The position numbers and the translations under genes are program-made. Under the pieces are notes generated by a model that did no database searches, had not been told where the DNA came from, and saw only the letters and a program-made list of their open reading frames with translations. DNA of 15,740 bases from Candidatus Krumholzibacteriota bacterium (GTDB lineage: Bacteria; Krumholzibacteriota; Krumholzibacteriia; LZORAL124-64-63), in assembly GCA_039714075.1 (NCBI GenBank), contig JBDLKA010000085.1, forward strand, positions 1-15,740. Direction: 5' to 3'. Within the stretch, counting starts at the first letter, position 1. Each line of letters opens with the position of its first letter. Positions 1,143 through 15,740 of the stretch are shown one piece after another.

Positions 1143-3860
1143 CTAATCATCTCGATTCCGTTCCAGCAGACGGGCCCAGCCCGTGACCAAGGCCAATGAT
1201 TCGGTGGCGCCCGTCACGAGGGCGCGCTGCACGACGATCTCCCCGCTGATTGGGTCGACGGCGTAGGAGGGCAGGAATGACGGCTCGAGCCCGGACAGGA
1301 TCCGCCGCGCCTCCCCGAAGATCAGGACGTCGCCCTCACGGCTGACCGGCACCGCAATCAGGGCTTGGGCATCATTCAAAAAGTAAATGATGTCGCTGCC
1401 GGGCGCCCACCTCGGCTGAATCCCACCGTCGGCGGAGACCCGCCAGCGCCCTTTCGCAGGGCCGAGGCCGTCGATGAAGATCTCGCTGGAGCCCGTTTCC
1501 TGGGACGAGTAGGCCAGCCAGCGCCCGTCCGGCGACACCTGGGCGAACCGTTCGGAGTAGACCGCATCGGGGTGCATGCGCCGCGTCTGTCCGGTCTCGA
1601 GGTCCAGGACACCCAGGCGCATGACCGCGTTCGAGTCCGATATCGTGTAGTGCAGTTCCCGCCCATCCGGCGTGAACGAAGTCGGGTAGTTGTCGTTGTC
1701 GTCGACAACCAACGGCTCGAGTCCGGCGCCACCCTGGCTGGAGGCCTTGTAGATGCCCCCGTGCCCCCGCTTGTCGTTCAGGACCGCCAACCAGGTCCCA
1801 TCGGGCGCGTACACCGCACTCCATTCCGACTCCGTTTCGAAGGTCAGCCGGGTCTGCAGGCCACGCTCGATCTCCAGTTGCCACAGATCCAGGGTGCCGG
1901 AACGGGTATCCGCCATCGCCAGGGCCAGCGCCTTGCCGTCGGGCGAGAAATTCATCCCGAGGGTCAGGCCCGGCAGGCCGAGGGGCCCGATTTCCTCGCC
2001 TTCCGAGCTGTAGCGAATGATGGTGGTTTTCCCTTGCCCGGCATCGGACCGGACATAGGCCAGCACGCCGGCGCGGCTGACCGAGAAAACCGAAACATGG
2101 GCGGCCCGGATGACCATGACGTTGTCCAGGACCGGGCTGGCCGGGCCGGTGAAGGCGAGGGCCGCGGTGTCGAAGGGCCGCGCCATGAGCAGGCTGTCGT
2201 GGGGATACAGCAGATGCCCGGCGGCGAACTGGGCGCTGGATTGGACCTTCAGCAGCTCCGTCTTCTGACCGGTGGCCGCCTCGACGGCCCAGATGGTGCT
2301 GTCGAGATCGGGATTGTCGTCGGACTGCGAGACGGCGATGTAGATGAAGTGCCTGCCGTCGGGCAGCCAGTGGGGCAAGCGGTGGCTGCGGACGTTTTCG
2401 TCCAGGTCGAGGCGGGTCACATCCACCGGATTGCCGCCGGAAGCGGACACCATTTTTATCGAAGTGGCGTGGCTCTCGGCAAAAACGACCTCATCGAACT
2501 GGTTCCACGATCCTCCCTTGAAATTCACCGCCGGCGCGACCCGCACCGCGGGTCCGCCGTTGATGGGCACCCGCATGATCTGGCCTTCGGAGCCGCCAAA
2601 CCCGATCTCCCGGCTGTCGTAGGACCAGAACGGGTAGATCGCCCCTTCGGTACCGTTCAGGACGCGCGTCCAGCCGTCGGCCAGGTTGCGCACCAGGATA
2701 CGCGGGATGCCGGTCGAGTCGGTGGCCGCGTAGCAAAGGTGGCGGCCGTCAGGCGAGACCTGGACCGGCCCCGGCGAGATCGGCGCCAGGTAGACCGACA
2801 TCCCTTCCGGCACGGCCACGGACGATTGCACCAACGGGCGTGGCTCGGGCGCTGGGCCGATCCGGCCGGTCAATCCGGCGAAAAGCGCACCGGCACAAGC
2901 CACCAGCAGCACCGCTGCCACGGCCCAGGGCAGGCGCGCCGCCGCGGGCTTCGGGGCCGGCAACGCAGCTTCGGCCGCCGCCGTGGACAAACCGACGATG
3001 GACGAGCTCGATCCTTCGAGGGCCACCCGTGCCTCGCCGATGTCCCGCAGGCGTTGGCGCTGATCCTTCTCCAGGCAGCGCTTGCAGATCTGGACCAACA
3101 GGGCCGAGTGGTCCTTCTCCACGCGCTCCCAGTCCGGTTCCTTGTGCAGCACGGCCGCCAGGGTATCGGTGGCCGTTTCGCCCTCGAAGAGGCGCTCACC
3201 GGTCATCATCTCGTAGAGGATCACCCCGAAGGCCCAGATGTCGCTGCGCCGGTCGACCTCGTAGCCGCGGGCCTGCTCGGGGCTCATGTAGGCCGCCGTG
3301 CCCAGCACCGTGCCCGAGCCCGTCAGGGCCTGGGTCAAGGTCGGCTGGTAGGAGTGGGATTCGGCGTCGCCCTCGGCCACGCCTTCGGCGGTGAAGGCCC
3401 GCGCCAGGCCGAAGTCCAGGATCTTGACCGTGCCTTCGCCCGAGACCTTCACGTTGGCCGGCTTCAGGTCGCGGTGCACGATGCCCTGCTCGTGGGCGTA
3501 CTCCAGCCCCCGTGCCAGCTGGCGCGTGATCTTGTCGATCTCGTTGGCCGGCAGCGAACCGCCCAGCAGACGGGTGCTCAGATCCTCACCGCCGGCCAGT
3601 TCCATGGCCAGCACCGGCTGGCCGTCGGTCTCCTCGAGGCCGTAGATCGCGGCGATGTTCTGGTGCTGCAGCGAGGCCAGGACGCGTGCCTCGCGCTGGA
3701 AGCGGGCCAGACGTTCTGCGTCCCGGGCCAACTCGGTGGGCAGCACTTTCAGGGCCACGTCGCGACCCAGTTTGGTATCGCGGGCCTTGAAGACCTCGCC
3801 CATGCCACCGCGCCCGATGGACGCAGTGACTTCATAAGGACCGATGACGCGACCGATCAT
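1143..3860 (-). CDS. Hanks-type Ser/Thr protein kinase with a transmembrane helix and C-terminal TolB-like (PD40/WD40) beta-propeller repeats, 905 aa
   Basis: Kinase motifs GRGGMGEV, VALKVL, HRDLKPAN, DFGLA, YMSPE and DIWAFG. TM segment LPWAVAAVLLVACAGALFAGL. Repeated SPDG/WLPDG/FTPDG propeller blades. ATG 3860 is preceded by GGAGGG. Confidence 0.95.
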   Translation of the reverse strand: MIGRVIGPYEVTASIGRGGMGEVFKARDTKLGRDVALKVLPTELARDAERLARFQREARVLASLQHQNIAAIYGLEETDGQPVLAMELAGGEDLSTRLLGGSLPANEIDKITRQLARGLEYAHEQGIVHRDLKPANVKVSGEGTVKILDFGLARAFTAEGVAEGDAESHSYQPTLTQALTGSGTVLGTAAYMSPEQARGYEVDRRSDIWAFGVILYEMMTGERLFEGETATDTLAAVLHKEPDWERVEKDHSALLVQICKRCLEKDQRQRLRDIGEARVALEGSSSSIVGLSTAAAEAALPAPKPAAARLPWAVAAVLLVACAGALFAGLTGRIGPAPEPRPLVQSSVAVPEGMSVYLAPISPGPVQVSPDGRHLCYAATDSTGIPRILVRNLADGWTRVLNGTEGAIYPFWSYDSREIGFGGSEGQIMRVPINGGPAVRVAPAVNFKGGSWNQFDEVVFAESHATSIKMVSASGGNPVDVTRLDLDENVRSHRLPHWLPDGRHFIYIAVSQSDDNPDLDSTIWAVEAATGQKTELLKVQSSAQFAAGHLLYPHDSLLMARPFDTAALAFTGPASPVLDNVMVIRAAHVSVFSVSRAGVLAYVRSDAGQGKTTIIRYSSEGEEIGPLGLPGLTLGMNFSPDGKALALAMADTRSGTLDLWQLEIERGLQTRLTFETESEWSAVYAPDGTWLAVLNDKRGHGGIYKASSQGGAGLEPLVVDDNDNYPTSFTPDGRELHYTISDSNAVMRLGVLDLETGQTRRMHPDAVYSERFAQVSPDGRWLAYSSQETGSSEIFIDGLGPAKGRWRVSADGGIQPRWAPGSDIIYFLNDAQALIAVPVSREGDVLIFGEARRILSGLEPSFLPSYAVDPISGEIVVQRALVTGATESLALVTGWARLLERNRDD

Positions 3861-3908
3861 GCCGCCAACCCTCCGCAACTTCGGGTGTGGAAAAGATTAA
3901 ACCCACCC

Positions 3909-4040: not shown

Positions 4041-5348
4041 CTACTGCGGCCAGTGCCCCGCCTCGAACCTCTTATGCCGGGCCAACCACGCCGCCAGCCA
4101 AACCGGATCCCCGGGCCCCGTCCCATTCGTAAGCGAGTCCGGCCACTGGGAATTGGCCAGTTCCTGGAACCGATCCTTCACCACGGCGCCCAGTGGATGC
4201 AGCTCCGCATCGAACTGGATCAACAACCGGTAGTTGGGATCCGAACCACCGACTTCGCAGGACAGCTGGATCTCGTCCTCGCCGTTCCGGAAGACCTGGA
4301 TCTCGAAAGCCGACAACCGCGTGGACTGCAGCAACTCCATGTATGGTGCGGGGAACTGGGGCAGGACCACCCGCACCAGGGCCGAGTCGGGTTGGGTGCT
4401 CCACCCATCGCAATTCTCGTCGATGGAGGCGCCGTTGGCGTGTTGGTCGTCGAGGATGAACACCATGGCGCCCTGGTAGGCCTTGGCGTTGTTGGTGCTC
4501 GCGCCGATGATCTCGTCCTTTCCGTCCCCGTCCAGATCCTGGTTCCGCAAATCCATCACGTGCCCTTTTACCGCGTAGTGGGAGCGGAGTGTGCCGTCCC
4601 TTTCCACGGTGCAGACCGCAGTCGGGTAGTACCGGCCATGGGTGAACCGGACGAGCACCTCAGGAAGGCCGTCGCCATCGAGGTCGGCGTAGCCAAAGAG
4701 TCGGCAGGAGAACTTGGCGGCAAGGACGTCTTCTTCCCCGAAGGCGGCGACCAGGGCGGGGATGTCCGGCCCCACCGACCAGACCAGCTCGCCCGTGGCG
4801 CGCTTCAGGCATCTGACTTCGCCTCCGTCGGGCGCAGTCCTGTCCGTGGCCACCAGGAGCAGGCCGGGGTCCCAGGGGGATTCTTCGCAGGAGACGATCG
4901 GGATCTCGTAGGGCGAGGACCAGAGCTCCAGGCCGAAGACGCCGTGCTTGCCGGCAAGGCGGTTGTCTTCCAGTGTCCAGGATGCGTGGGACCGACCGAC
5001 CATCCACAGGATACCCGCGGCAGCCACCGCCGCGACGCCGACCATGACCGCTGCCCGGATCCAGAGGGCCCGGCCGGATCCAGACGTTTTGGCCTTGCCT
5101 TGTTCCTGCTCGACGTCGCCGTTCAGGAGATCGTTCAGGGTCATTCCCAGGGCCCGGGCGATCAACAGGAGGGTCTTTTCCTGGACCCGAACCCGCTTGC
5201 CCTGCTCGATGTCGTGGATGGTCCGGTAGGTGAGTCCCGCCCTTTCGGCCAGGTCGCTCTGACTGAGGTGTTGCTGTTCACGGATTTCGCGGAGGCGGTC
5301 GAGGAAATCCCCGCGTGTCAAATCTAAGTTTTTCGTACCATTTTTCAT
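4041..5348 (-). CDS. Membrane-anchored XRE-family HTH regulator with an extracytoplasmic FG-GAP/VCBS-like domain, 435 aa
   Basis: N-terminal HTH_3 pattern (RLREIREQQHLSQSDLAERAGLTYRTIHDIEQG...IARALGMTLNDLL). One TM helix (WIRAAVMVGVAAVAAAGILWMVG). Two DxDGDG Ca-binding motifs (ADLDGDGLPEVLV, QDLDGDGKDEIIG). ATG 5348 follows GAGG, and ATG 5387 is an alternative start. Confidence 0.85.
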   Translation of the reverse strand: MKNGTKNLDLTRGDFLDRLREIREQQHLSQSDLAERAGLTYRTIHDIEQGKRVRVQEKTLLLIARALGMTLNDLLNGDVEQEQGKAKTSGSGRALWIRAAVMVGVAAVAAAGILWMVGRSHASWTLEDNRLAGKHGVFGLELWSSPYEIPIVSCEESPWDPGLLLVATDRTAPDGGEVRCLKRATGELVWSVGPDIPALVAAFGEEDVLAAKFSCRLFGYADLDGDGLPEVLVRFTHGRYYPTAVCTVERDGTLRSHYAVKGHVMDLRNQDLDGDGKDEIIGASTNNAKAYQGAMVFILDDQHANGASIDENCDGWSTQPDSALVRVVLPQFPAPYMELLQSTRLSAFEIQVFRNGEDEIQLSCEVGGSDPNYRLLIQFDAELHPLGAVVKDRFQELANSQWPDSLTNGTGPGDPVWLAAWLARHKRFEAGHWPQ

Positions 5349-5464
5349 GTCGCCAGCCTCATGGGAAACTTGGATGCAGAATTCCATGTCCGGGTGTTTT
5401 TGTGGCGGGCGAGCCTTAAAAAATCAGGATAAACACCTATGTACCTGGAATATTACAAGATATT

Positions 5465-6960: not shown

Positions 6961-8502
6961 ATGAGGGGATTACTTTACACAGGTCTTTTTATCGGCCTGG
7001 CATTCCTGGCAATCACCGGCTGTGGAGATGATCCGACATCCACCCCCACAGGCCCAGGCACCATAATAGTCGACAGCGCCCCCGATCATCTCCGAATCTC
7101 CTGGACCCTGACCAACAACCATGGCCTGACCCACAACGGCTTGAACGACGAGACGATCAAGAACATGGCCGCGGGAAGGTACACCCTGGCCTGGTGGGAC
7201 ATCCCCGGCTGGGTAACCCCGGACACGCAATCCGGCACCCTCGAAAACGGCCGGACCCTGACCTTCCGCGGCACCTATACGGAAATTCCCGTGGAGACGG
7301 GAACGATCGAAATCGCCGCGCTGCCGGAAAGCATCGCCTATTACTGGATAGTGACCGGCCCTCGCGGCATCGAAACCACCGGCGTCAACGATACCGTCCT
7401 GGAGAACATGGAGGTCGGTTCCTACACCATCACCTGGGGCTCCCTGGATGACTGGGCCACGCCGCCGAACGAAACGCTGATCCTCGAAAAAGCCGCGACG
7501 ATCACCTTCCACGGAACCTATCTGCCGTCAGGCACGATCGTGATCGACCCGACACCCGCCGACATCAACGCGCCGTGGCTGCTCTGGGGACCGGAAAACG
7601 TGTCGGGTTACGGGGCGGCCACGCTGGAAGAAATGGAGGTCGGCCTGTACGCGCTGGTCTGGAACGACGTCTCGGTCTGGGTCGCGCCGCCTCAAGAAAC
7701 CTTGGACCTGGCCATGGCCGAGACCGTGACTTTCAGCGGTTCCTATCAGGAGGATCCGGGTCTGGACGGCGAACTGCTCTTGATGCCTCCGGGCACCTTC
7801 TGGATGGGCAGCCCCGAGGACGAGGTAGGCCGGAATCCCGTGTCCGAAACCCGCCATCAGGTGACGCTGACGCGGCCGTACTATCTGGGGAAATACGAAG
7901 TGACCGAAGAGTTGTGGGACGCGGTGATGGGATCCGGGACCTCGACTTCGCAGCTACCCGTGGGGCTCGTCAGTTACATCGATGCCATTCGATTCTGCAA
8001 CGCCTATTCGCTCAAGGAAGGCTTTACCCCGGCTTATGATGGGGTCCCGTACAACTGGACCTGGAACCAGGATGCCGATGGGTATCGATTGCCGACGGAA
8101 GCGGAGTGGGAGCATGCCTGTCGCGCCGGCAGCACCACCGCATTCGCCAACGGCCCGATCACCGAACCGATCTGCGAGCTCGATCCGTACCTGGATCTGA
8201 TGGGCTGGTACTGCGGCAATTCACCGGATTCGGCCCAACCCGTGGGGTTGAAACAGGCCAACGCGTGGGGTCTTTTCGACATGCACGGCAACCAGGTCGA
8301 ATGGTGCTGGGATTGGTGGATGCGGCATCAGCCCGGGGCCGTGACCGATCCGCTGGGACCGGATAGCGGCGAATACAAGGTATTAAAGAGCGGTAGCTGG
8401 GTCTGGTATGCGGCGGGCTGTCGCTCCGCGGCTCGCGGTTGGGATATCCAAGGTGGCTCCGGCTACCCCTACGGACTCCGTCTGGCCAGATCGGTCAGAT
8501 AA
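6961..8502 (+). CDS. Lipoprotein with three PEGA-like repeats and a C-terminal FGE-sulfatase (SUMF1/EgtB/PvdO, CLec-fold) domain, 513 aa
   Basis: Lipobox ITG-C. FGE-family motifs PPGTFWMGS, KYEVT, YRLPTEAEWEHACRAG, NAWGLFDMHGNQVEWCWD and GLRLAR. RBS AGGAG. Confidence 0.92.
   Translation: MRGLLYTGLFIGLAFLAITGCGDDPTSTPTGPGTIIVDSAPDHLRISWTLTNNHGLTHNGLNDETIKNMAAGRYTLAWWDIPGWVTPDTQSGTLENGRTLTFRGTYTEIPVETGTIEIAALPESIAYYWIVTGPRGIETTGVNDTVLENMEVGSYTITWGSLDDWATPPNETLILEKAATITFHGTYLPSGTIVIDPTPADINAPWLLWGPENVSGYGAATLEEMEVGLYALVWNDVSVWVAPPQETLDLAMAETVTFSGSYQEDPGLDGELLLMPPGTFWMGSPEDEVGRNPVSETRHQVTLTRPYYLGKYEVTEELWDAVMGSGTSTSQLPVGLVSYIDAIRFCNAYSLKEGFTPAYDGVPYNWTWNQDADGYRLPTEAEWEHACRAGSTTAFANGPITEPICELDPYLDLMGWYCGNSPDSAQPVGLKQANAWGLFDMHGNQVEWCWDWWMRHQPGAVTDPLGPDSGEYKVLKSGSWVWYAAGCRSAARGWDIQGGSGYPYGLRLARSVR
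7057..7752 (+). repeat. Three tandem ~75-80 aa protein repeats (PEGA-like beta-sandwich stalk)
   Basis: Units start at 7057, 7300 and 7531. Each follows GTIxIxxxP...W...G...TxxxMxxGxYxLxW....WxxP......L.....xTFxGxY. Confidence 0.85.
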
Positions 8503-10437: not shown

Positions 10438-10633
10438 ATCCTGCCCAACAGCGGTTGGGGTCTTGCCCGGCCCCATCGTAACCGCAAAACTGTCATGGCG
10501 GACGGCAAATTTGGGGGAGGGACAGGTCGCGTTCAATGGCCGCTTCGCCAGGTTGTTGCTATATTTACATTTGCCGCAATCATTATCCCATCGGATCTTG
10601 TTGAAGGTCGATAATACGAAAGGGGGCCTGCGG

Positions 10634-11758
10634 ATGCCTTTTTCCAGTCCACAGCCTGCCTCGTTCACGCCGAAAGTTTTCTACTTCAGTAAGCCCTCGC
10701 AGATTTCGGAGATCCCTGCCGCGGTCGCCCGTAAACTTGATGCCGTGGCCGAACAATTTGCTTTCCGTGCCAATGACTACTACCTGGGTCTCATTGACTG
10801 GAACGATCCGGCTGACCCCATCCGCCGACTCATCATACCCGATACGGCGGAACTCAACGATTGGGGTGAGTTGGATGCCTGTAACGAGGCCGGAAACACG
10901 GTAGTTCACGGACTCCAGCACAAATATCGTGACACGGTCCTGGTACTGGCTGCGGCCACCTGCGCCGCATATTGCCGCTACTGTTTCCGCAAGCGGCTGT
11001 TCATGCGCCACAACGAGGAGACCGCGCGGGACCTCGGTCCGGTCTACGAGTATGTGGCCCGGCATCCCGAGATCACGGACGTCCTGCTGTCGGGCGGCGA
11101 CCCGCTGGTGTTGAGTACCGACCGTTTGGCGCCCATCATTCGCCGTTTGGCCAATATTCCCCATGTGCGGACCATCCGCATGGGCTCCAAGGTGCCGGCG
11201 TTCAATCCCCACCGGTTGCTCGACGACGAAGCCCTCCAGGAACTGGTCGCCCAGGTGACGGCGGGCGGGACGGCCGTGTACCTGATGGCCCACTTCGACC
11301 ACCCCCGCGAACTCACCGACCTGGCGTGCAACGGAATCCGGGCCATGCGGCAGGCGGGCGCCAACATGGCTAACCAGTGTCCCATCGTCCGGGGAGTGAA
11401 CGACGACGCCGAGGTGCTCGCCGAGCTTTTCGAGGCGGCTACGGAACTGGGCATGCCTCAGTACTATCTGTTCCAGGGGCGTCCCACGTCCGGCAACGAG
11501 CCCTACGAGGTACCGCTGGTGCGGGGTTGGCAATTGTTCGATGCCGCGCGCCGCCGGTGTTCCGGTCTTTCGCGGTGGGCGCGGTTCGTCATGAGTCACG
11601 CCAGCGGCAAGATCGAGGTGCTTGGGGTGGATGATCGACACATCCACCTGCGCTATCATCGAGCCCGCGACGAGGCCGACGAGAGCCGGATCATGGTGGC
11701 CCGCCGGGATGATCGGGCCTGCTGGTTCGACGAACTGGAGTTGCTGGACCTTTGCTGA
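10634..11758 (+). CDS. KamA-family (lysine 2,3-aminomutase-like) radical SAM protein, 374 aa
   Basis: GLQHKYRDTVL, the CxxxCxxC motif CAAYCRYCFRK, LLSGGDPL, HFDHPRE, NQCPIVRGVNDD, YYLFQ and a candidate PLP-binding lysine in HASGKIE. ATG 10634 follows AAAGGGGG. Confidence 0.92.
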   Translation: MPFSSPQPASFTPKVFYFSKPSQISEIPAAVARKLDAVAEQFAFRANDYYLGLIDWNDPADPIRRLIIPDTAELNDWGELDACNEAGNTVVHGLQHKYRDTVLVLAAATCAAYCRYCFRKRLFMRHNEETARDLGPVYEYVARHPEITDVLLSGGDPLVLSTDRLAPIIRRLANIPHVRTIRMGSKVPAFNPHRLLDDEALQELVAQVTAGGTAVYLMAHFDHPRELTDLACNGIRAMRQAGANMANQCPIVRGVNDDAEVLAELFEAATELGMPQYYLFQGRPTSGNEPYEVPLVRGWQLFDAARRRCSGLSRWARFVMSHASGKIEVLGVDDRHIHLRYHRARDEADESRIMVARRDDRACWFDELELLDLC

Positions 11759-12462
11759 ACGACTCGTCGCCACAAACAGGACCGGCCCCGGAATCATCCC
11801 CTGTCCCGAAGGGCCGGCCGGTCCTGTCACGGTTGTTGTGCGTTGTTCTTTTCGCAACCGCCATGGGATTCCTGGAGGCCATTTGTGTCATCTATCTCCG
11901 GAAAAACCTCTTCTTTTCCGGACCTGACATCCAGGAGATCGTGGCGCAACTCGGTCGCTTCGGAATCGAACATGTTCGCGAGGCGTGCACCATCGTCATG
12001 CTCTTGACAGTGGCGTATGTCGCCGCCTTCAATTCCCGAACCGTAATTGCGATGTTTTTCCTGATGTTCGGCGTCTGGGATATTACCTACTACATCGGCT
12101 TGCGGATTTTTGCGGGCTGGCCGGTTTCATTGGTGGAATGGGATTGCCTGTTTCTGATCCCCGTGCCCTGGTATGGCCCGGTGCTTGCCCCCGTACTCAT
12201 CAGTTTGTTCTTCGTGGCCAGCTGTATTCTGCTGATTCTTCGCGAGGCCGCCGGCTCCAGCCTGCGGATGACATTGCCCGCCCTGGCCCTGCTGGGATCG
12301 GGCTTCGGGCTCTGGTACTGGTCGTTCGTGAAGGATACCGATACCATCATGGCCGGCGGCTATTCCGGTGTCGTGTATTCGTGGCCCCTGTTTTTCGGCG
12401 GGATGTCCTGTGCGGTGCTCGGGGTCTTTATCGCTGCGCGCAAACGGGTCGAATATTGTTGA
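11752..12462 (+). CDS. Polytopic membrane protein of unknown function, 236 aa
   Basis: About six hydrophobic segments with motif-like stretches AMGFLEA, REACTIVML, FGVWDITYY and WDCLFLIPVPWYGPVLAP. The TTG start overlaps the radical SAM stop (TTGCTGA), and the exact start is uncertain. Confidence 0.8.
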   Translation: MLNDSSPQTGPAPESSPVPKGRPVLSRLLCVVLFATAMGFLEAICVIYLRKNLFFSGPDIQEIVAQLGRFGIEHVREACTIVMLLTVAYVAAFNSRTVIAMFFLMFGVWDITYYIGLRIFAGWPVSLVEWDCLFLIPVPWYGPVLAPVLISLFFVASCILLILREAAGSSLRMTLPALALLGSGFGLWYWSFVKDTDTIMAGGYSGVVYSWPLFFGGMSCAVLGVFIAARKRVEYC

Positions 12463-12573: not shown

Positions 12574-13200
12574 ATGAAAATTATCCTACTGTTCGTCGCC
12601 ATAGCCGCCTTGGGCCTGACCGGCCTGGCGCATGGCCAATGCAACACCGATCCCAACGAGATCGGCATCTTCTGGGATCAGGACTGCACCACCTGCACGA
12701 ATTGCCTGTACTTTACCGGTGGACCGGCGTACGCCTACGTCATCCTGATCAACTGCACCCAGCCCGCGGGGATTAGCGGATTCGAGTTCTGCCTGGTCAA
12801 TGCGGACGGGACGGCTTTCCTGCCGACTCCCGGCAACTTCATCTCGGGGTACACCTACCCACCCGGGGCGATCAATGCTCACACCGAGCCGTGTTTCGCC
12901 GTGGGATTGGCGAGCCCGATGCCCTCGAGCCCCTGCATGACCCTGATTACCATCAATCTGTTGATTTTCGGAGTCGATCCTTGGTGCTTCGGCGTCATGC
13001 CGTCGGTTCCGGCCTCGATTCCGGGGCACATGGCCTATGCCGACGGGGCTAATCCCGGCCTTCTGTTGCCCATGTATCCCAATACGGGACCTGGAGCCAC
13101 GGATTACGCCATGGCCTGCGTGAACAGTCCGATCTGTGATCAACATCCCGTCGGGGTGGAGGAATCGAGTTGGGGGTCCCTCAAGAGCTTGTACCGCTGA
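12574..13200 (+). CDS. Secreted Cys-rich protein (possibly cohesin-like fold) with C-terminal SWGSLKSLYR tail, 208 aa
   Basis: RBS AGGGGGG. Signal peptide MKIILLFVAIAALGLTGLAHG-Q. Eleven Cys in the mature chain. Ends PVGVEESSWGSLKSLYR. Confidence 0.85.
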   Translation: MKIILLFVAIAALGLTGLAHGQCNTDPNEIGIFWDQDCTTCTNCLYFTGGPAYAYVILINCTQPAGISGFEFCLVNADGTAFLPTPGNFISGYTYPPGAINAHTEPCFAVGLASPMPSSPCMTLITINLLIFGVDPWCFGVMPSVPASIPGHMAYADGANPGLLLPMYPNTGPGATDYAMACVNSPICDQHPVGVEESSWGSLKSLYR

Positions 13201-13221
13201 CCTGACCTGCTCGTTTGGACG

Positions 13222-13258
13222 GCCCGGGTTGCCGCGCGGCAGCCCGGGTTCTTCTGTT
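13222..13258 (+). terminator. Rho-independent terminator
   Basis: 12-bp stem GCCCGGGTTGCC-GCGC-GGCAGCCCGGGT (two G-U pairs) followed by TCTTCTGTT, 21 nt after the stop codon. Confidence 0.7.
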
Positions 13259-13353
13259 CGAAAATCATCCGGCGGGCTGGACGATGGATGCAATTGTTGG
13301 TAATTTTCCGTGCTGTCGTCGCAAAGCCACCCATTCCAAAAGGTCGACAACCC

Positions 13354-14202
13354 ATGCCTGAGCAGCTATCCGGATTCCACCGGGACCGAGCGAAGTTTCT
13401 GTGTTCTGCCCTGCGGCGGTTTCCGGTGGTGCTCACTGTGATGGTCCTTGCCCTACCTGGTTTATTTCCCCGGTCGGCCGGCGCCTCCGGTATCGAAATG
13501 ATCCTGATTCCCCCGGGAACGTTCCTGATGGGGAGTCCGGAAAGCGAGCCCGGGCGCGCCGACCACGAGTTGCAGCATAAAGTCACCCTGACCCGCGCCT
13601 TTTGGCTGGGAAAAACCGAGGTGACTCAACGCCAGTGGAAGGCCGTGATGGGGAACAACCCGGCGAAGATCAAGGGCGAGGATCATCCGGTGGAGAAGGT
13701 CAGCTGGTACGACTGCGTGAATTTCTGTAACAAACTCTCGGCGCTGGAAGGGCTGACGCCGGCCTACCAAATCTTGGGGGAAAGCGTCACCTGGGACCAG
13801 TCGGCCGACGGCTATCGTTTGCCCACGGAAGCGGAGTGGGAGTACGCCTGCCGGGCGGGGACGACGGGGCCGTTTGCGGGTGACCTGGACGAGATGGCAA
13901 TCTATAGCAAGAACTCGGTCAGGAAAACCCGTGCGGTGGGGACCAGAAAGGCCAACCCCTGGGGTTTCCACGATATGCACGGCAACGTGGCGGAGTGGTG
14001 CTGGGACCGGTATGAGAGGGATTATGGGGCGGATTGGGTGATCGATCCGACCGGTCCCGCTGAAGGCGATTTCCGGATCGAACGCGGCGGCAACTGGCAT
14101 TTCAACGCCATGGGTTGCCGGTCCGCGAGCCGCGGCACGGACAAATCCGTCACCCGGAGAAACAGGGTGGGTTTCCGTCTGGCGAGGTGGGCTCTCAACT
14201 AA
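13354..14202 (+). CDS. Exported FGE-sulfatase-family (SUMF1/EgtB/PvdO, CLec-fold) protein, 282 aa
   Basis: Hydrophobic leader ending AGA-S. Motifs IPPGTFLMGS, KTEVTQRQW, HPVEKVSW, YRLPTEAEWEYACRAG, WGFHDMHGNVAEWCWD, RGGNW and GFRLAR. ATG 13354 follows AAAGGT, and the start is uncertain. Confidence 0.92.
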   Translation: MPEQLSGFHRDRAKFLCSALRRFPVVLTVMVLALPGLFPRSAGASGIEMILIPPGTFLMGSPESEPGRADHELQHKVTLTRAFWLGKTEVTQRQWKAVMGNNPAKIKGEDHPVEKVSWYDCVNFCNKLSALEGLTPAYQILGESVTWDQSADGYRLPTEAEWEYACRAGTTGPFAGDLDEMAIYSKNSVRKTRAVGTRKANPWGFHDMHGNVAEWCWDRYERDYGADWVIDPTGPAEGDFRIERGGNWHFNAMGCRSASRGTDKSVTRRNRVGFRLARWALN

Positions 14203-14976
14203 CGATAAAGAGCCTTGAAACCGCCCAATGAAGTTTTACTGGTGGCAACCCGGACCGGGCCCCATATATCCAGTCTTCCACTGTTGGATGTGTAGAGATT
14301 TCCGTTGTCACCCTCCTGAATCCCCCTTGTGTTCGGGGCGTACCAACTTGTCAGCAGGGTTCCCGCCGGGTCAATTTTGAAGGCAGTCGGTGTTCCCGAC
14401 CCGTTGAGAATACTGACCACCCCAATGGTCCCTTCGGGGCCGACATCCATAGCAAAGGGGAGGACCGACCCACCGAAGCGATAGACTTCTTCGATGAATA
14501 CACCATTCAAATCCGTCTTCTTGACCCTGTTTGTAGACTTATCCCATTCGATGGTCAGAACATTTCCCTCGGCATCAAAGTCCACGTCACGCAGGCCGAT
14601 GAACTGGTCGTTTCCGGAGCCCCATGATCCCCACTTCATTTTGAAATTGCCGGAGGAATCGAAGACCTGCAGTCGGGAATTGAAAAAGTCGCAACATAAA
14701 TATCCCCATTGGGATGGACCGCAATGCCATGAGGCTGATTGAATTGCCCATCTCCGGTGCCAATGCTGCCGAATTCCATGAGGAATCGACCGTGTACACA
14801 TTGCCCGCGTCATCAGTCACGATTCCGTAGAAAGAACTCGCGGCAGTGCCGTCGGGGTAGAATACCGGGTCTGTCCTTAAAATCAGCGGAGGGGGATCTT
14901 CCAAAGCCATGGCTGGAATTACGAAACCGACCACCAGAATGAGCGCAAAGATGACAGATAGTTGGGACTGACGCAT
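14199..14976 (-). pseudogene. Secreted NHL-repeat (6-bladed beta-propeller) protein gene split over three frames (pseudogene or assembly error)
   Basis: Frame A (14976-14785) gives a signal peptide plus [14 protein letters not shown]. Frame B (14785-14693) gives [31 protein letters not shown]. Frame C (14690-14199) gives [30 protein letters not shown]...SLGGFKALYR. All three segments match the NHL repeat consensus. Confidence 0.85.
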
Positions 14977-15275: not shown

Positions 15276-15740
15276 TCATGGGCAAGAAGCACCGATGGAC
15301 TGGGCTATCTTACTCACGTCAGACAGGTTGACGACTCCGTCGTATTGGAAATCAGAACGGAACGAGTAGCCACCGAAGAAATCAGCGGAGAAAAAAGACA
15401 CGTCAGACAGGTTGACGGCTCCGTCGCCGTTGATGTCGGGGCTGTTGTGCATGATGTTCAAACCGGGACCGCTGGTCAGAGGAGAACCGGCAATCATCAC
15501 CACGGTAAGATCTTGGCTGTAGCCGCCGGCCCGCAGCGGATTGGTCCAGGTGGTCTGGCCATTTGCATCGGTGTCGGCGTCGGCAATCGCGCCTCCCTGG
15601 CAGGGACGAATACACCAGTGACAATCAGCAACGGATTCGAGCCACATGTCCTCGGCCGGGTAGTTGGCAACAGGGTTGTTTGCAGGGTCCCTGAGATGCA
15701 GCGTGATGGTAGCATCAATCGTACTGCCGACAAAGATCCA
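15276..15740 (-). CDS. C-terminal 154 aa of a probably secreted protein with an Ig-like segment and a dockerin-like double EF-hand, 5'-truncated by the window edge
   Basis: The frame is open to the window end (WIFVGSTIDATITLHLRDPANNPVANYPAEDMWLES...DTDANGQTTW...). It carries the duplicated Ca-loop PDINGDGAVNLSDV and SDFQYDGVVNLSDV. Confidence 0.8.
   Translation of the reverse strand, partial: WIFVGSTIDATITLHLRDPANNPVANYPAEDMWLESVADCHWCIRPCQGGAIADADTDANGQTTWTNPLRAGGYSQDLTVVMIAGSPLTSGPGLNIMHNSPDINGDGAVNLSDVSFFSADFFGGYSFRSDFQYDGVVNLSDVSKIAQSIGASCP

Follow-up and report, generated by a model that had tools for sequence, protein, structure and literature searches.

The type A C-terminal domain (CTD; TIGR04183/PF18962) of type IX secretion systems (T9SS), as in Porphyromonas gingivalis and Flavobacterium johnsoniae, combines a Sec signal with a portable C-terminal signal on otherwise unrelated protein bodies. 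Short CTDs of 43-55 residues from Prevotella intermedia, described in the accessible portion of PMC11969387, show that T9SS signals can shrink. The tripartite sorting signals (LPXTG, PEP-CTERM, GlyGly-CTERM and MYXO-CTERM) place one tag on dozens of signal-peptide proteins and are matched with one candidate enzyme, according to the available text of bioRxiv 10.1101/2023.06.07.544157. Here we examine a 17-residue C-terminal tail that ends two genes in a 15,740-nucleotide stretch of DNA (the window) from a Candidatus Krumholzibacteriota bacterium. The window is contig C85 (G000:C85; JBDLKA010000085.1) of the source genome G000, a 4.06-Mb assembly that is 92% complete.

Judged from sequence, the tail appears to be CTD-like in role yet neither a CTD nor a tripartite sorting signal. 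It shares with the type A CTD, in part of its copies, a small-then-hydrophobic linker, and further a conserved lysine, a basic last residue and the property of being swappable on one body, and SprA, PorV and PorU are encoded in the genome. The differences are in length (17 versus 70-100 residues), in a predicted short helix in place of a seven-strand sandwich and in a Trp/Phe-Gly core that CTDs lack, as well as in a separate PorU clade, small cargos and a search for GldM and GldN that came back blank, with silent positive controls. The cleavage consensus PT/GI of P. intermedia resembles the tail linker, above all the S-G-I of a single-copy family described below, although motifs B, D and E and a sheet of three strands are retained in the P. 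intermedia CTDs, which are also three times longer (both in the accessible portion of PMC11969387). Unlike the tripartite signals, as far as the available text of 10.1101/2023.06.07.544157 describes them, the tail has no transmembrane segment, Arg cluster or invariant Cys, and its candidate enzyme is a C25 cysteine peptidase rather than sortase A or an intramembrane protease.

It is, on balance, somewhat probable that the tail is a miniature T9SS sorting signal that replaces the CTD and is cut by a PorU-type sortase during surface attachment. This reading builds on the motif itself, on where it sits, on its exchange with the CTD and on its links, through two gene neighbourhoods, to parts of T9SS.

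The tail motif and its carriers

Both window tails lie where the first-pass annotation had placed them. The first (13147-13200, + strand, including the stop; 47.9 bits) consists of an acidic linker, PVGVEE, followed by SSWGSLKSLYR, and the second (14199-14252, - strand, including the stop; 19.2 bits) is a degenerate version at the end of an NHL β-propeller gene. As reported there, the two align without gaps over their last 17 residues with seven identities (V, S, G, K, L, Y and R). This level of identity to the first tail (7/17) is reached by 0 of the 2,508 other gene C-termini of G000.

The consensus of the tail is P-V-[APG]-[VT]-E-x-x-[ST]-[WF]-G-[SG]-[VLI]-K-[AS]-L-[YF]-R-stop, with a terminal core of [ST]-[WF]-G-x-[VLI]-K-x-L-[YF]-R. 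With an anchored position matrix, whose training set excluded the window contig, we find 74 open reading frame (ORF) ends in G000 at 18 bits or more, 73 of them at 30 bits or more; the NHL tail scores 19.2 and the next ORF 9.3. The same matrix reaches 15 bits in 0 of 5,004,958 internal windows of the genome, and the pattern drafted in the first-pass annotation matches 36 of 76,459 stop-terminated frames. The tail is thus not confined to a handful of copies, an outcome that would have counted against the annotation's reading. It is strictly terminal, with no residue following in 72 of the 74 ORFs. Lys occupies position -5 in 71 of 72 tails and Trp or Phe the core aromatic position in 70 of 72, the NHL tail having Leu there, while the synonymous positions of the tail codons vary freely. 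A divergent tail at G000:C13:49013-49510 (+), which scores 9.3 bits and faces a dockerin-like gene, is a borderline 75th member.

No transmembrane segment is present in the tail. Nor is it a sorting signal already described by a profile, another outcome that would have spoken against that reading, as the sorting models of NCBIfam and Pfam match 0 of 71 tails at E values up to 1. Over its last nine residues the tail carries a net charge of about +2 and a hydrophobic moment of 0.52. An amphipathic helix, as initially suggested, is consistent with the short terminal helix that ends two AlphaFold models of tail proteins, but the confidence of these helices is low (pLDDT 55-57 in the window protein, 65-68 in the second model) and a helix and a strand have practically the same moment (0.52 and 0.51), shuffled sequences giving 0.38 ± 0.17.

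The 74 carriers fall into 38 body families by BLAST. Signal peptides, called with our own heuristic and not SignalP, are found at the chosen start of 53 of the 74 carriers versus 732 of 2,445 background genes and, if every possible start is considered, in 64 of 72 closed tail ORFs versus 538 of 1,629 length-matched background genes; the enrichment expected of a sorted class is therefore present, as the annotation had anticipated. Eight of the 72 carriers outside the window have a Pfam match (lamin tail and CBM20 twice each, C39-like peptidase, temptin, AhpC/TSA and β-helix) and 66 of the 74 tail genes, the NHL piece aside, match no tested Pfam family below 0.001. Measured from stop to stop, tail carriers have a median of 238 residues and a maximum of 512, and CTD carriers a median of 743. 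The 17-residue tail is a real, portable C-terminal motif of this genome.

Links to the type IX secretion system

The first-pass annotation had set T9SS aside on the grounds that the tail is too short, but the genomic evidence points to this system. In G000 there are 133 matches to TIGR04183 and three genes of the PorV family, and the genome also encodes SprA and, next to porV, a full PorU. Tail and CTD exclude each other, with a tail on 0 of 160 CTD-like ORFs, and they can replace each other on one body: G000:C110:4211-5059, which ends in the tail, and its paralog C106:228-1334, which ends in a CTD, share 64% identity over 223 residues and diverge at the linker. Similarly, the family of the window protein encoded at 12574-13200, whose body has a predicted cohesin fold, comprises 27 ORFs in G000, of which 24 end in the tail, three in a CTD and none in neither. 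Because the tail stands where sister proteins carry a CTD, it is likely a miniature sorting label.

The two signals also share features of sequence. CTDs have Lys or Arg at position -6 in 120 of 138 cases, which may be equivalent to the tail Lys at -5. The near-invariant C-terminal Lys of the CTD contacts PorV, according to the accessible sections of PMC10994853. Linkers upstream of CTDs reach at least 6 bits with a tail-linker matrix in 29 of 141 cases, versus 181 of 2,660 control windows, and this suggests a moderate similarity. With regard to size, there is limited precedent: the last 22 residues of HBP35 are described as enough for secretion of green fluorescent protein in the available parts of PMC5445135 and PMC11969387.

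The first neighbourhood link is to a second PorU-like sortase. This PorU paralog (G000:C2:4021-8574) is a C25 peptidase (PF01364, 180 bits) with a CTD-like end of its own, and three tail genes together with a dockerin-like gene immediately precede it. It misses the cut-offs of the PorU families NF033707 (162 bits; cut-off 420) and NF052324 (89 bits; cut-off 450). The latter describes a putative T9SS sortase, PorU2, which is likewise a second PorU-like gene in T9SS genomes, but the paralog belongs to another clade, since its NF052324 score of 89 is below its PorU score of 162. Its orthologs form a single clade of 41 sequences (support 0.83), in which the catalytic His and Cys are kept in 41 of 41 and a His follows the Cys in 41 of 41.

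We compared the first 40 of 52 paralog matches with the first 20 of 84 canonical PorU matches. Tail genes are found in 23 of the 40 paralog loci versus 1 of the 20 PorU loci and, where at least 5 kb of upstream sequence is present, in 18 of 23 versus 1 of 19. Of the 55 tails at paralog loci, 52 are on the same strand as the paralog and upstream of it. The window cohesin family is matched by 10 of 54 upstream tail ORFs. In the 13 genomes for which both loci were compared, tail genes occur at 10 paralog loci versus one PorU locus. A predicted complex of the paralog (811 residues) with the tail scored 0.02 against a mark of 0.32 and was counted neither way. Elsewhere in G000, M6-like T9SS-dependent proteins stand beside porV-family genes twice (C19:22033-25632 and C47:1545-6144); at C47, the two genes possibly form another carrier unit.

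The tail is widespread. Its profile is found in 151 of 151 genomes of the same phylum, in 9 of 9 genomes of a second small phylum (the record is titled Gemmatimonadota, but the number of genomes in the group points to a different phylum) and, at E ≤ 1e-4, in 41 of 51 genomes of the phylum to which a record titled Eisenbacteria belongs (the Eisenbacteria phylum), where a DNA pattern for the tail is present in seven of the ten negatives. The record titles include both Eisenbacteria and Krumholzibacteriia, the lineages that the annotation had named. A single-sequence search with the catalytic domain of the paralog finds orthologs in 8 of 10 genomes of the same phylum and 42 of 51 of the Eisenbacteria phylum, and in 0 of 2 genomes of the second small phylum and 0 of 17 of a further phylum represented by G157 (the record has the title Zixiibacteriota, LCP-89 and Calditrichota occur among the names of homologues, and the phylum assigned by the Genome Taxonomy Database may differ). 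Canonical PorU is present in 79 of these 80 genomes. A profile search recovers the paralog in G001, G002, G222 and G223 (457-486 bits), the four misses of the same and the second small phylum, and in G224 (506 bits), as well as in five of the nine Eisenbacteria misses, with fragments in three more. Among 61 genomes of the G157 phylum, with 13 candidates scored per genome, no clear paralog was found (best 228 bits, versus 447-699 for orthologs).

An apparent absence of the tail from the G157 phylum (0 of 61 genomes with the tail hidden Markov model) was dropped, as the DNA pattern matches 40 of the 61 genomes and a protein profile 59. The pattern nearly always has one match per genome, while a reversed control pattern gives six matches in 80 genomes, and the matches are one family: a signal peptide, one FnIII-like domain and the tail (for example L342:1504-1956 (-) and L314:1504-1953 (-)). 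This FnIII-tail protein is single copy in 59 of 61 genomes of the G157 phylum and in 2 of 2 titled Ignavibacteria, and it is present in 67 of 201 genomes of the phylum of G156 (record titled Melioribacteraceae). In total, 1,194 database proteins match the family. No stand-alone version was found in 22 genomes of the tail-rich phyla.

Among the best 120 of the 1,194 matches, all end in S-x-x-x-x-T-W-G-S-I-K-x-x-F-R/K. The linker is a close fit to the PorU cleavage rule: 117 of these 120 have Gly or Ser at position -14, and 118 have Ile or Val at position -13. In four of five partial matches the FnIII-like domain of this protein precedes a CTD. In 16 of 17 loci of the G157 phylum, the gene directly upstream encodes PorD/DUF4835 (81.9 bits in Pfam; 83.8 bits in NF052317, under its cut-off); in the Ignavibacteria-titled loci the FnIII-tail gene is instead upstream of Maf. 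PorD belongs to the extended T9SS translocon, as stated in the accessible sections of PMC10994853, and the adjacency to porD thus provides a second, independent tie of the tail to T9SS. We regard the single-copy FnIII-tail protein as a candidate T9SS accessory protein that has so far gone unrecognised.

Cleaved signal, docking peptide and other readings

In the reading that we favor, the carriers would be exported by Sec through their predicted N-terminal signal peptides. The terminal core would then be recognised, instead of a folded CTD, at the outer-membrane core of T9SS, formed by SprA and a PorV-family barrel. By analogy with P. gingivalis, the cut would fall in the linker, 14-15 residues from the end and ahead of a small residue that has Val, Ile or Thr after it, and the protein would be passed on to a surface glycan, as happens to CTD cargo through PorU. 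In the Krumholzibacteriota, the Eisenbacteria and a third phylum, the tail has spread to dozens of small cargos together with the PorU paralog, a likely specialist enzyme there, whereas lineages without the paralog have one conserved FnIII-tail protein that may rely on the canonical machinery.

Several points weigh against this reading. Known T9SS signals are described as folding into sheets, as having 43 residues or more and as containing motifs B, D and E (available parts of PMC11969387 and PMC11285876), and the latter stresses that an intact CTD fold is needed; the tail shows none of these features. PorU is reported to cut at X/(GSA)(VLI) in the accessible portion of PMC4560394, but [GSA][VLI] is found at -15/-14 in only 24 of 72 G000 tails, or 36 if Thr is allowed, and the expected first residue after the cut is Pro in 15 of 72. 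Even at either register, the rule fits 39 of 71 tails. The linker as a cleavage site, as put forward in the first-pass annotation, is plausible but obeys the PorU rule in only part of the tails of this genome. A first linker pattern gave no enrichment before CTDs (12 of 141 versus 258 of 2,660 controls), and a second one, which was drafted by eye from CTD linkers, matched 49 of 141 pre-CTD linkers, 88 of 2,660 controls and 21 of 72 tails. PorD/DUF4835 was not detected in G000 by a search whose positive controls were also silent. Two tail proteins (G000:C57:17947-20466 (-)) have lipobox-like signal peptides and are predicted lipoproteins.

The association with the paralog has its own weak points. 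No tail gene is present in 17 of the 40 paralog loci, many of which are short; random 20-kb windows of G000 contain a tail gene in 26% of cases, and the related genomes compared are not independent. Three genomes of the Eisenbacteria phylum (G249, G258 and G262) have the paralog but no tail by either search. Conversely, the tail occurs in genomes without a clear paralog, which is therefore not required. The idea that the paralog is the only reader of the tail was rejected, because lineages lacking it keep the tail on the FnIII protein.

An alternative that retains T9SS, and that we consider unlikely, is an uncleaved docking peptide. The tail would bind a groove, either on a carrier with a CTD or on a T9SS or other outer-membrane part (a PorV paralog, the PorU paralog, PorD or SprA), so that the small proteins exit or stay non-covalently attached. 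All of the T9SS gene-neighbourhood evidence fits this equally well. The invariance of T-W-G-S-I-K in all of the best 120 FnIII proteins is more typical of a binding site than of a loose cleavage signal, and both the Pro residues after the expected cut (15 of 72 tails) and the short terminal helix in both models agree with docking. Against docking stand the small-hydrophobic linker kept upstream of the core, with its near-perfect fit to the PorU rule in the single-copy family, and the retention of His and Cys by the neighbouring peptidase in 41 of 41 sequences.

Quite improbable, in our view, is a periplasmic signal independent of T9SS, read by a PDZ-type C-terminal processing protease or another envelope factor for maturation, retention or turnover. 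PDZ-type ligands are strictly terminal, as the tail is in 72 of 74 cases, and the two predicted lipoproteins and the blank searches for GldM, GldN and PorD in G000 (controls silent) would also suit such a signal. The exchange with the CTD speaks against it, both in the paralog pair and in the 24 + 3 + 0 split of the cohesin-fold family, as do the linkage to the PorU paralog and to porD in different phyla and the cargo types (CBM20, lamin tail, cohesin and β-helix), which are typical for surface proteins.

We give still less credence to a basic amphipathic helix that binds proteins to the outer membrane or, by self-assembly, to one another in a surface layer, with no dedicated reader. The charge of about +2 and the moment of 0.52 are compatible with this, and 24 near-equal cohesin-fold modules suggest a structural coat. 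But the moment exceeds that of shuffles by no more than about one standard deviation, the invariant Gly, Lys and Arg and the fixed distance to the stop exceed what lipid binding needs, and the sortase paralog and the crossing of the outer membrane would be left unexplained. A DNA-level repeat or chance match, to which only the broken NHL gene lends anything, has next to no chance and is refuted by the free variation of synonymous codons, by the motif always being in frame before a stop with no internal match in 5 million windows and by the six matches of the reversed control in 80 genomes.

The window genes and what the tail may mean

The gene at 12574-13200 (+) encodes a secreted single-domain protein of 208 residues with 11 Cys, a signal peptide and the tail, as seen from the ORF, AlphaFold and Foldseek. 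Its body is predicted to have a cohesin β-sandwich fold. The AlphaFold model is a β-sandwich (pLDDT 91) followed by the loose terminal helix mentioned above, and its top Foldseek matches are cohesins (E 5e-4). In VIA-align, the best cohesin match has a Z of 11.4 and a root-mean-square deviation of 3.2 over 125 residues, and the top 18 matches are all cohesin or cohesin-like (Z 11.4-8.5). A Pfam scan found nothing below E 0.1, PF00963 Cohesin included. Of the Atlas clusters to which a Pfam family is assigned, the closest (score 0.89) has Cohesin in 16% of its members. The Atlas relatives of the protein are mostly from Candidatus Krumholzibacteriota. The tail pattern matches 27 of its 29 database homologues, the other two ending in variant tails, and a related-locus search seeded with the protein confirmed no locus. 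It resembles the cohesins of the clostridial cellulosome and of C. perfringens glycoside hydrolases (PDB 2vo8, 5nrk) in predicted fold and in having dockerin-like genes nearby, but differs in its ~12% identity, the missing Pfam Cohesin match, its single module and its diderm host.

One such gene is in the window itself: the 5'-truncated gene at 15276-15740 (-), of which the C-terminal part is present, ends in a dockerin-like duplicated motif (Dockerin_1 21.9 bits; cut-off 22.9). A similar gene (G000:C2:1376-2038) is part of the tail-gene cluster upstream of the PorU paralog, and a dockerin-like gene in this position recurs in seven loci. These proteins are possible candidate partners of the cohesin-fold tail proteins. 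Further small proteins with dockerin-like ends are encoded at C13:49595-50227 and C138:5097-5927, and none of the four proteins has a tail or a CTD.

The NHL β-propeller gene (14199-14976, -) extends over three reading frames, as judged from a three-frame translation: a signal-peptide frame (14976-14782, -), a middle frame with an NHL repeat (14785-14687, -) and the tail frame (14690-14199, -), which has DUF5128 propeller and ScyF NHL matches. The first-pass annotation had assigned signal peptides to both window proteins; this is borne out for 12574-13200, but for the NHL protein only if translation is continued through two frameshifts. Of the 74 tails, that of the NHL gene scores lowest, with Leu instead of Trp/Phe and no acidic linker. 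The first break seems to lack part of a repeat. A contig of sequencing run X1, which may be the source sample, agrees with the window across both breaks, and none of the pieces listed from run X2 bridges them. Among 60 genomes of the family, no intact close relative of the gene was found, only one weak partial match, whereas well-scoring tails are present on NHL-like C-termini in other genomes (loci L149 and L158). The gene is probably decaying or a pseudogene, or else reflects an assembly error.

The remaining window genes encode a CPBP/Rce1-like intramembrane protease (352-1101, +), a Ser/Thr kinase with a PD40 β-propeller (1143-3878, -), a helix-turn-helix protein fused to FG-GAP repeats (4041-5387, -), an FGE-sulfatase-domain protein with a lipoprotein-like start and repeated β-rich modules (6961-8502, +), a radical SAM protein of the lysine-aminomutase type (by eye; Pfam Radical_SAM) followed by a membrane protein (10463-12462, +), and a second FGE-sulfatase-domain protein (13288-14202, +). 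The CPBP/Rce1-like protein was considered as a protease for the tail, which has no Cys or membrane segment. Both FGE-sulfatase proteins score against the GldK and GldJ models, far below the cut-off for the one tested.

A literature search, with supplements and most subscription papers outside its reach, found no description of the tail. The accepted view is that T9SS signals are folded domains and that their shape is what is recognised, and a peptide of 15-17 residues, if it is indeed such a signal, would change the model of cargo recognition. Going further, we would tentatively propose, with considerable doubt, that the T9SS translocon reads a second, peptide-sized class of signal. This 15-residue Trp-Gly-Lys tail would be so old that several FCB lineages have retained it, once per genome, on a conserved FnIII accessory protein, which in one of them is encoded beside porD. 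Three candidate phyla would have turned it into a complete second sorting route served by a sortase clade of its own, and dozens of small modules, a cohesin scaffold among them, would be displayed on the surface in this way. The single-copy FnIII-tail gene may make the question testable in cultured relatives. If the tail acts as proposed, it would be a compact export or display tag, and it would mark a hidden secretome of 74 genes in this genome, with copies in 151 of 151 genomes of the phylum.

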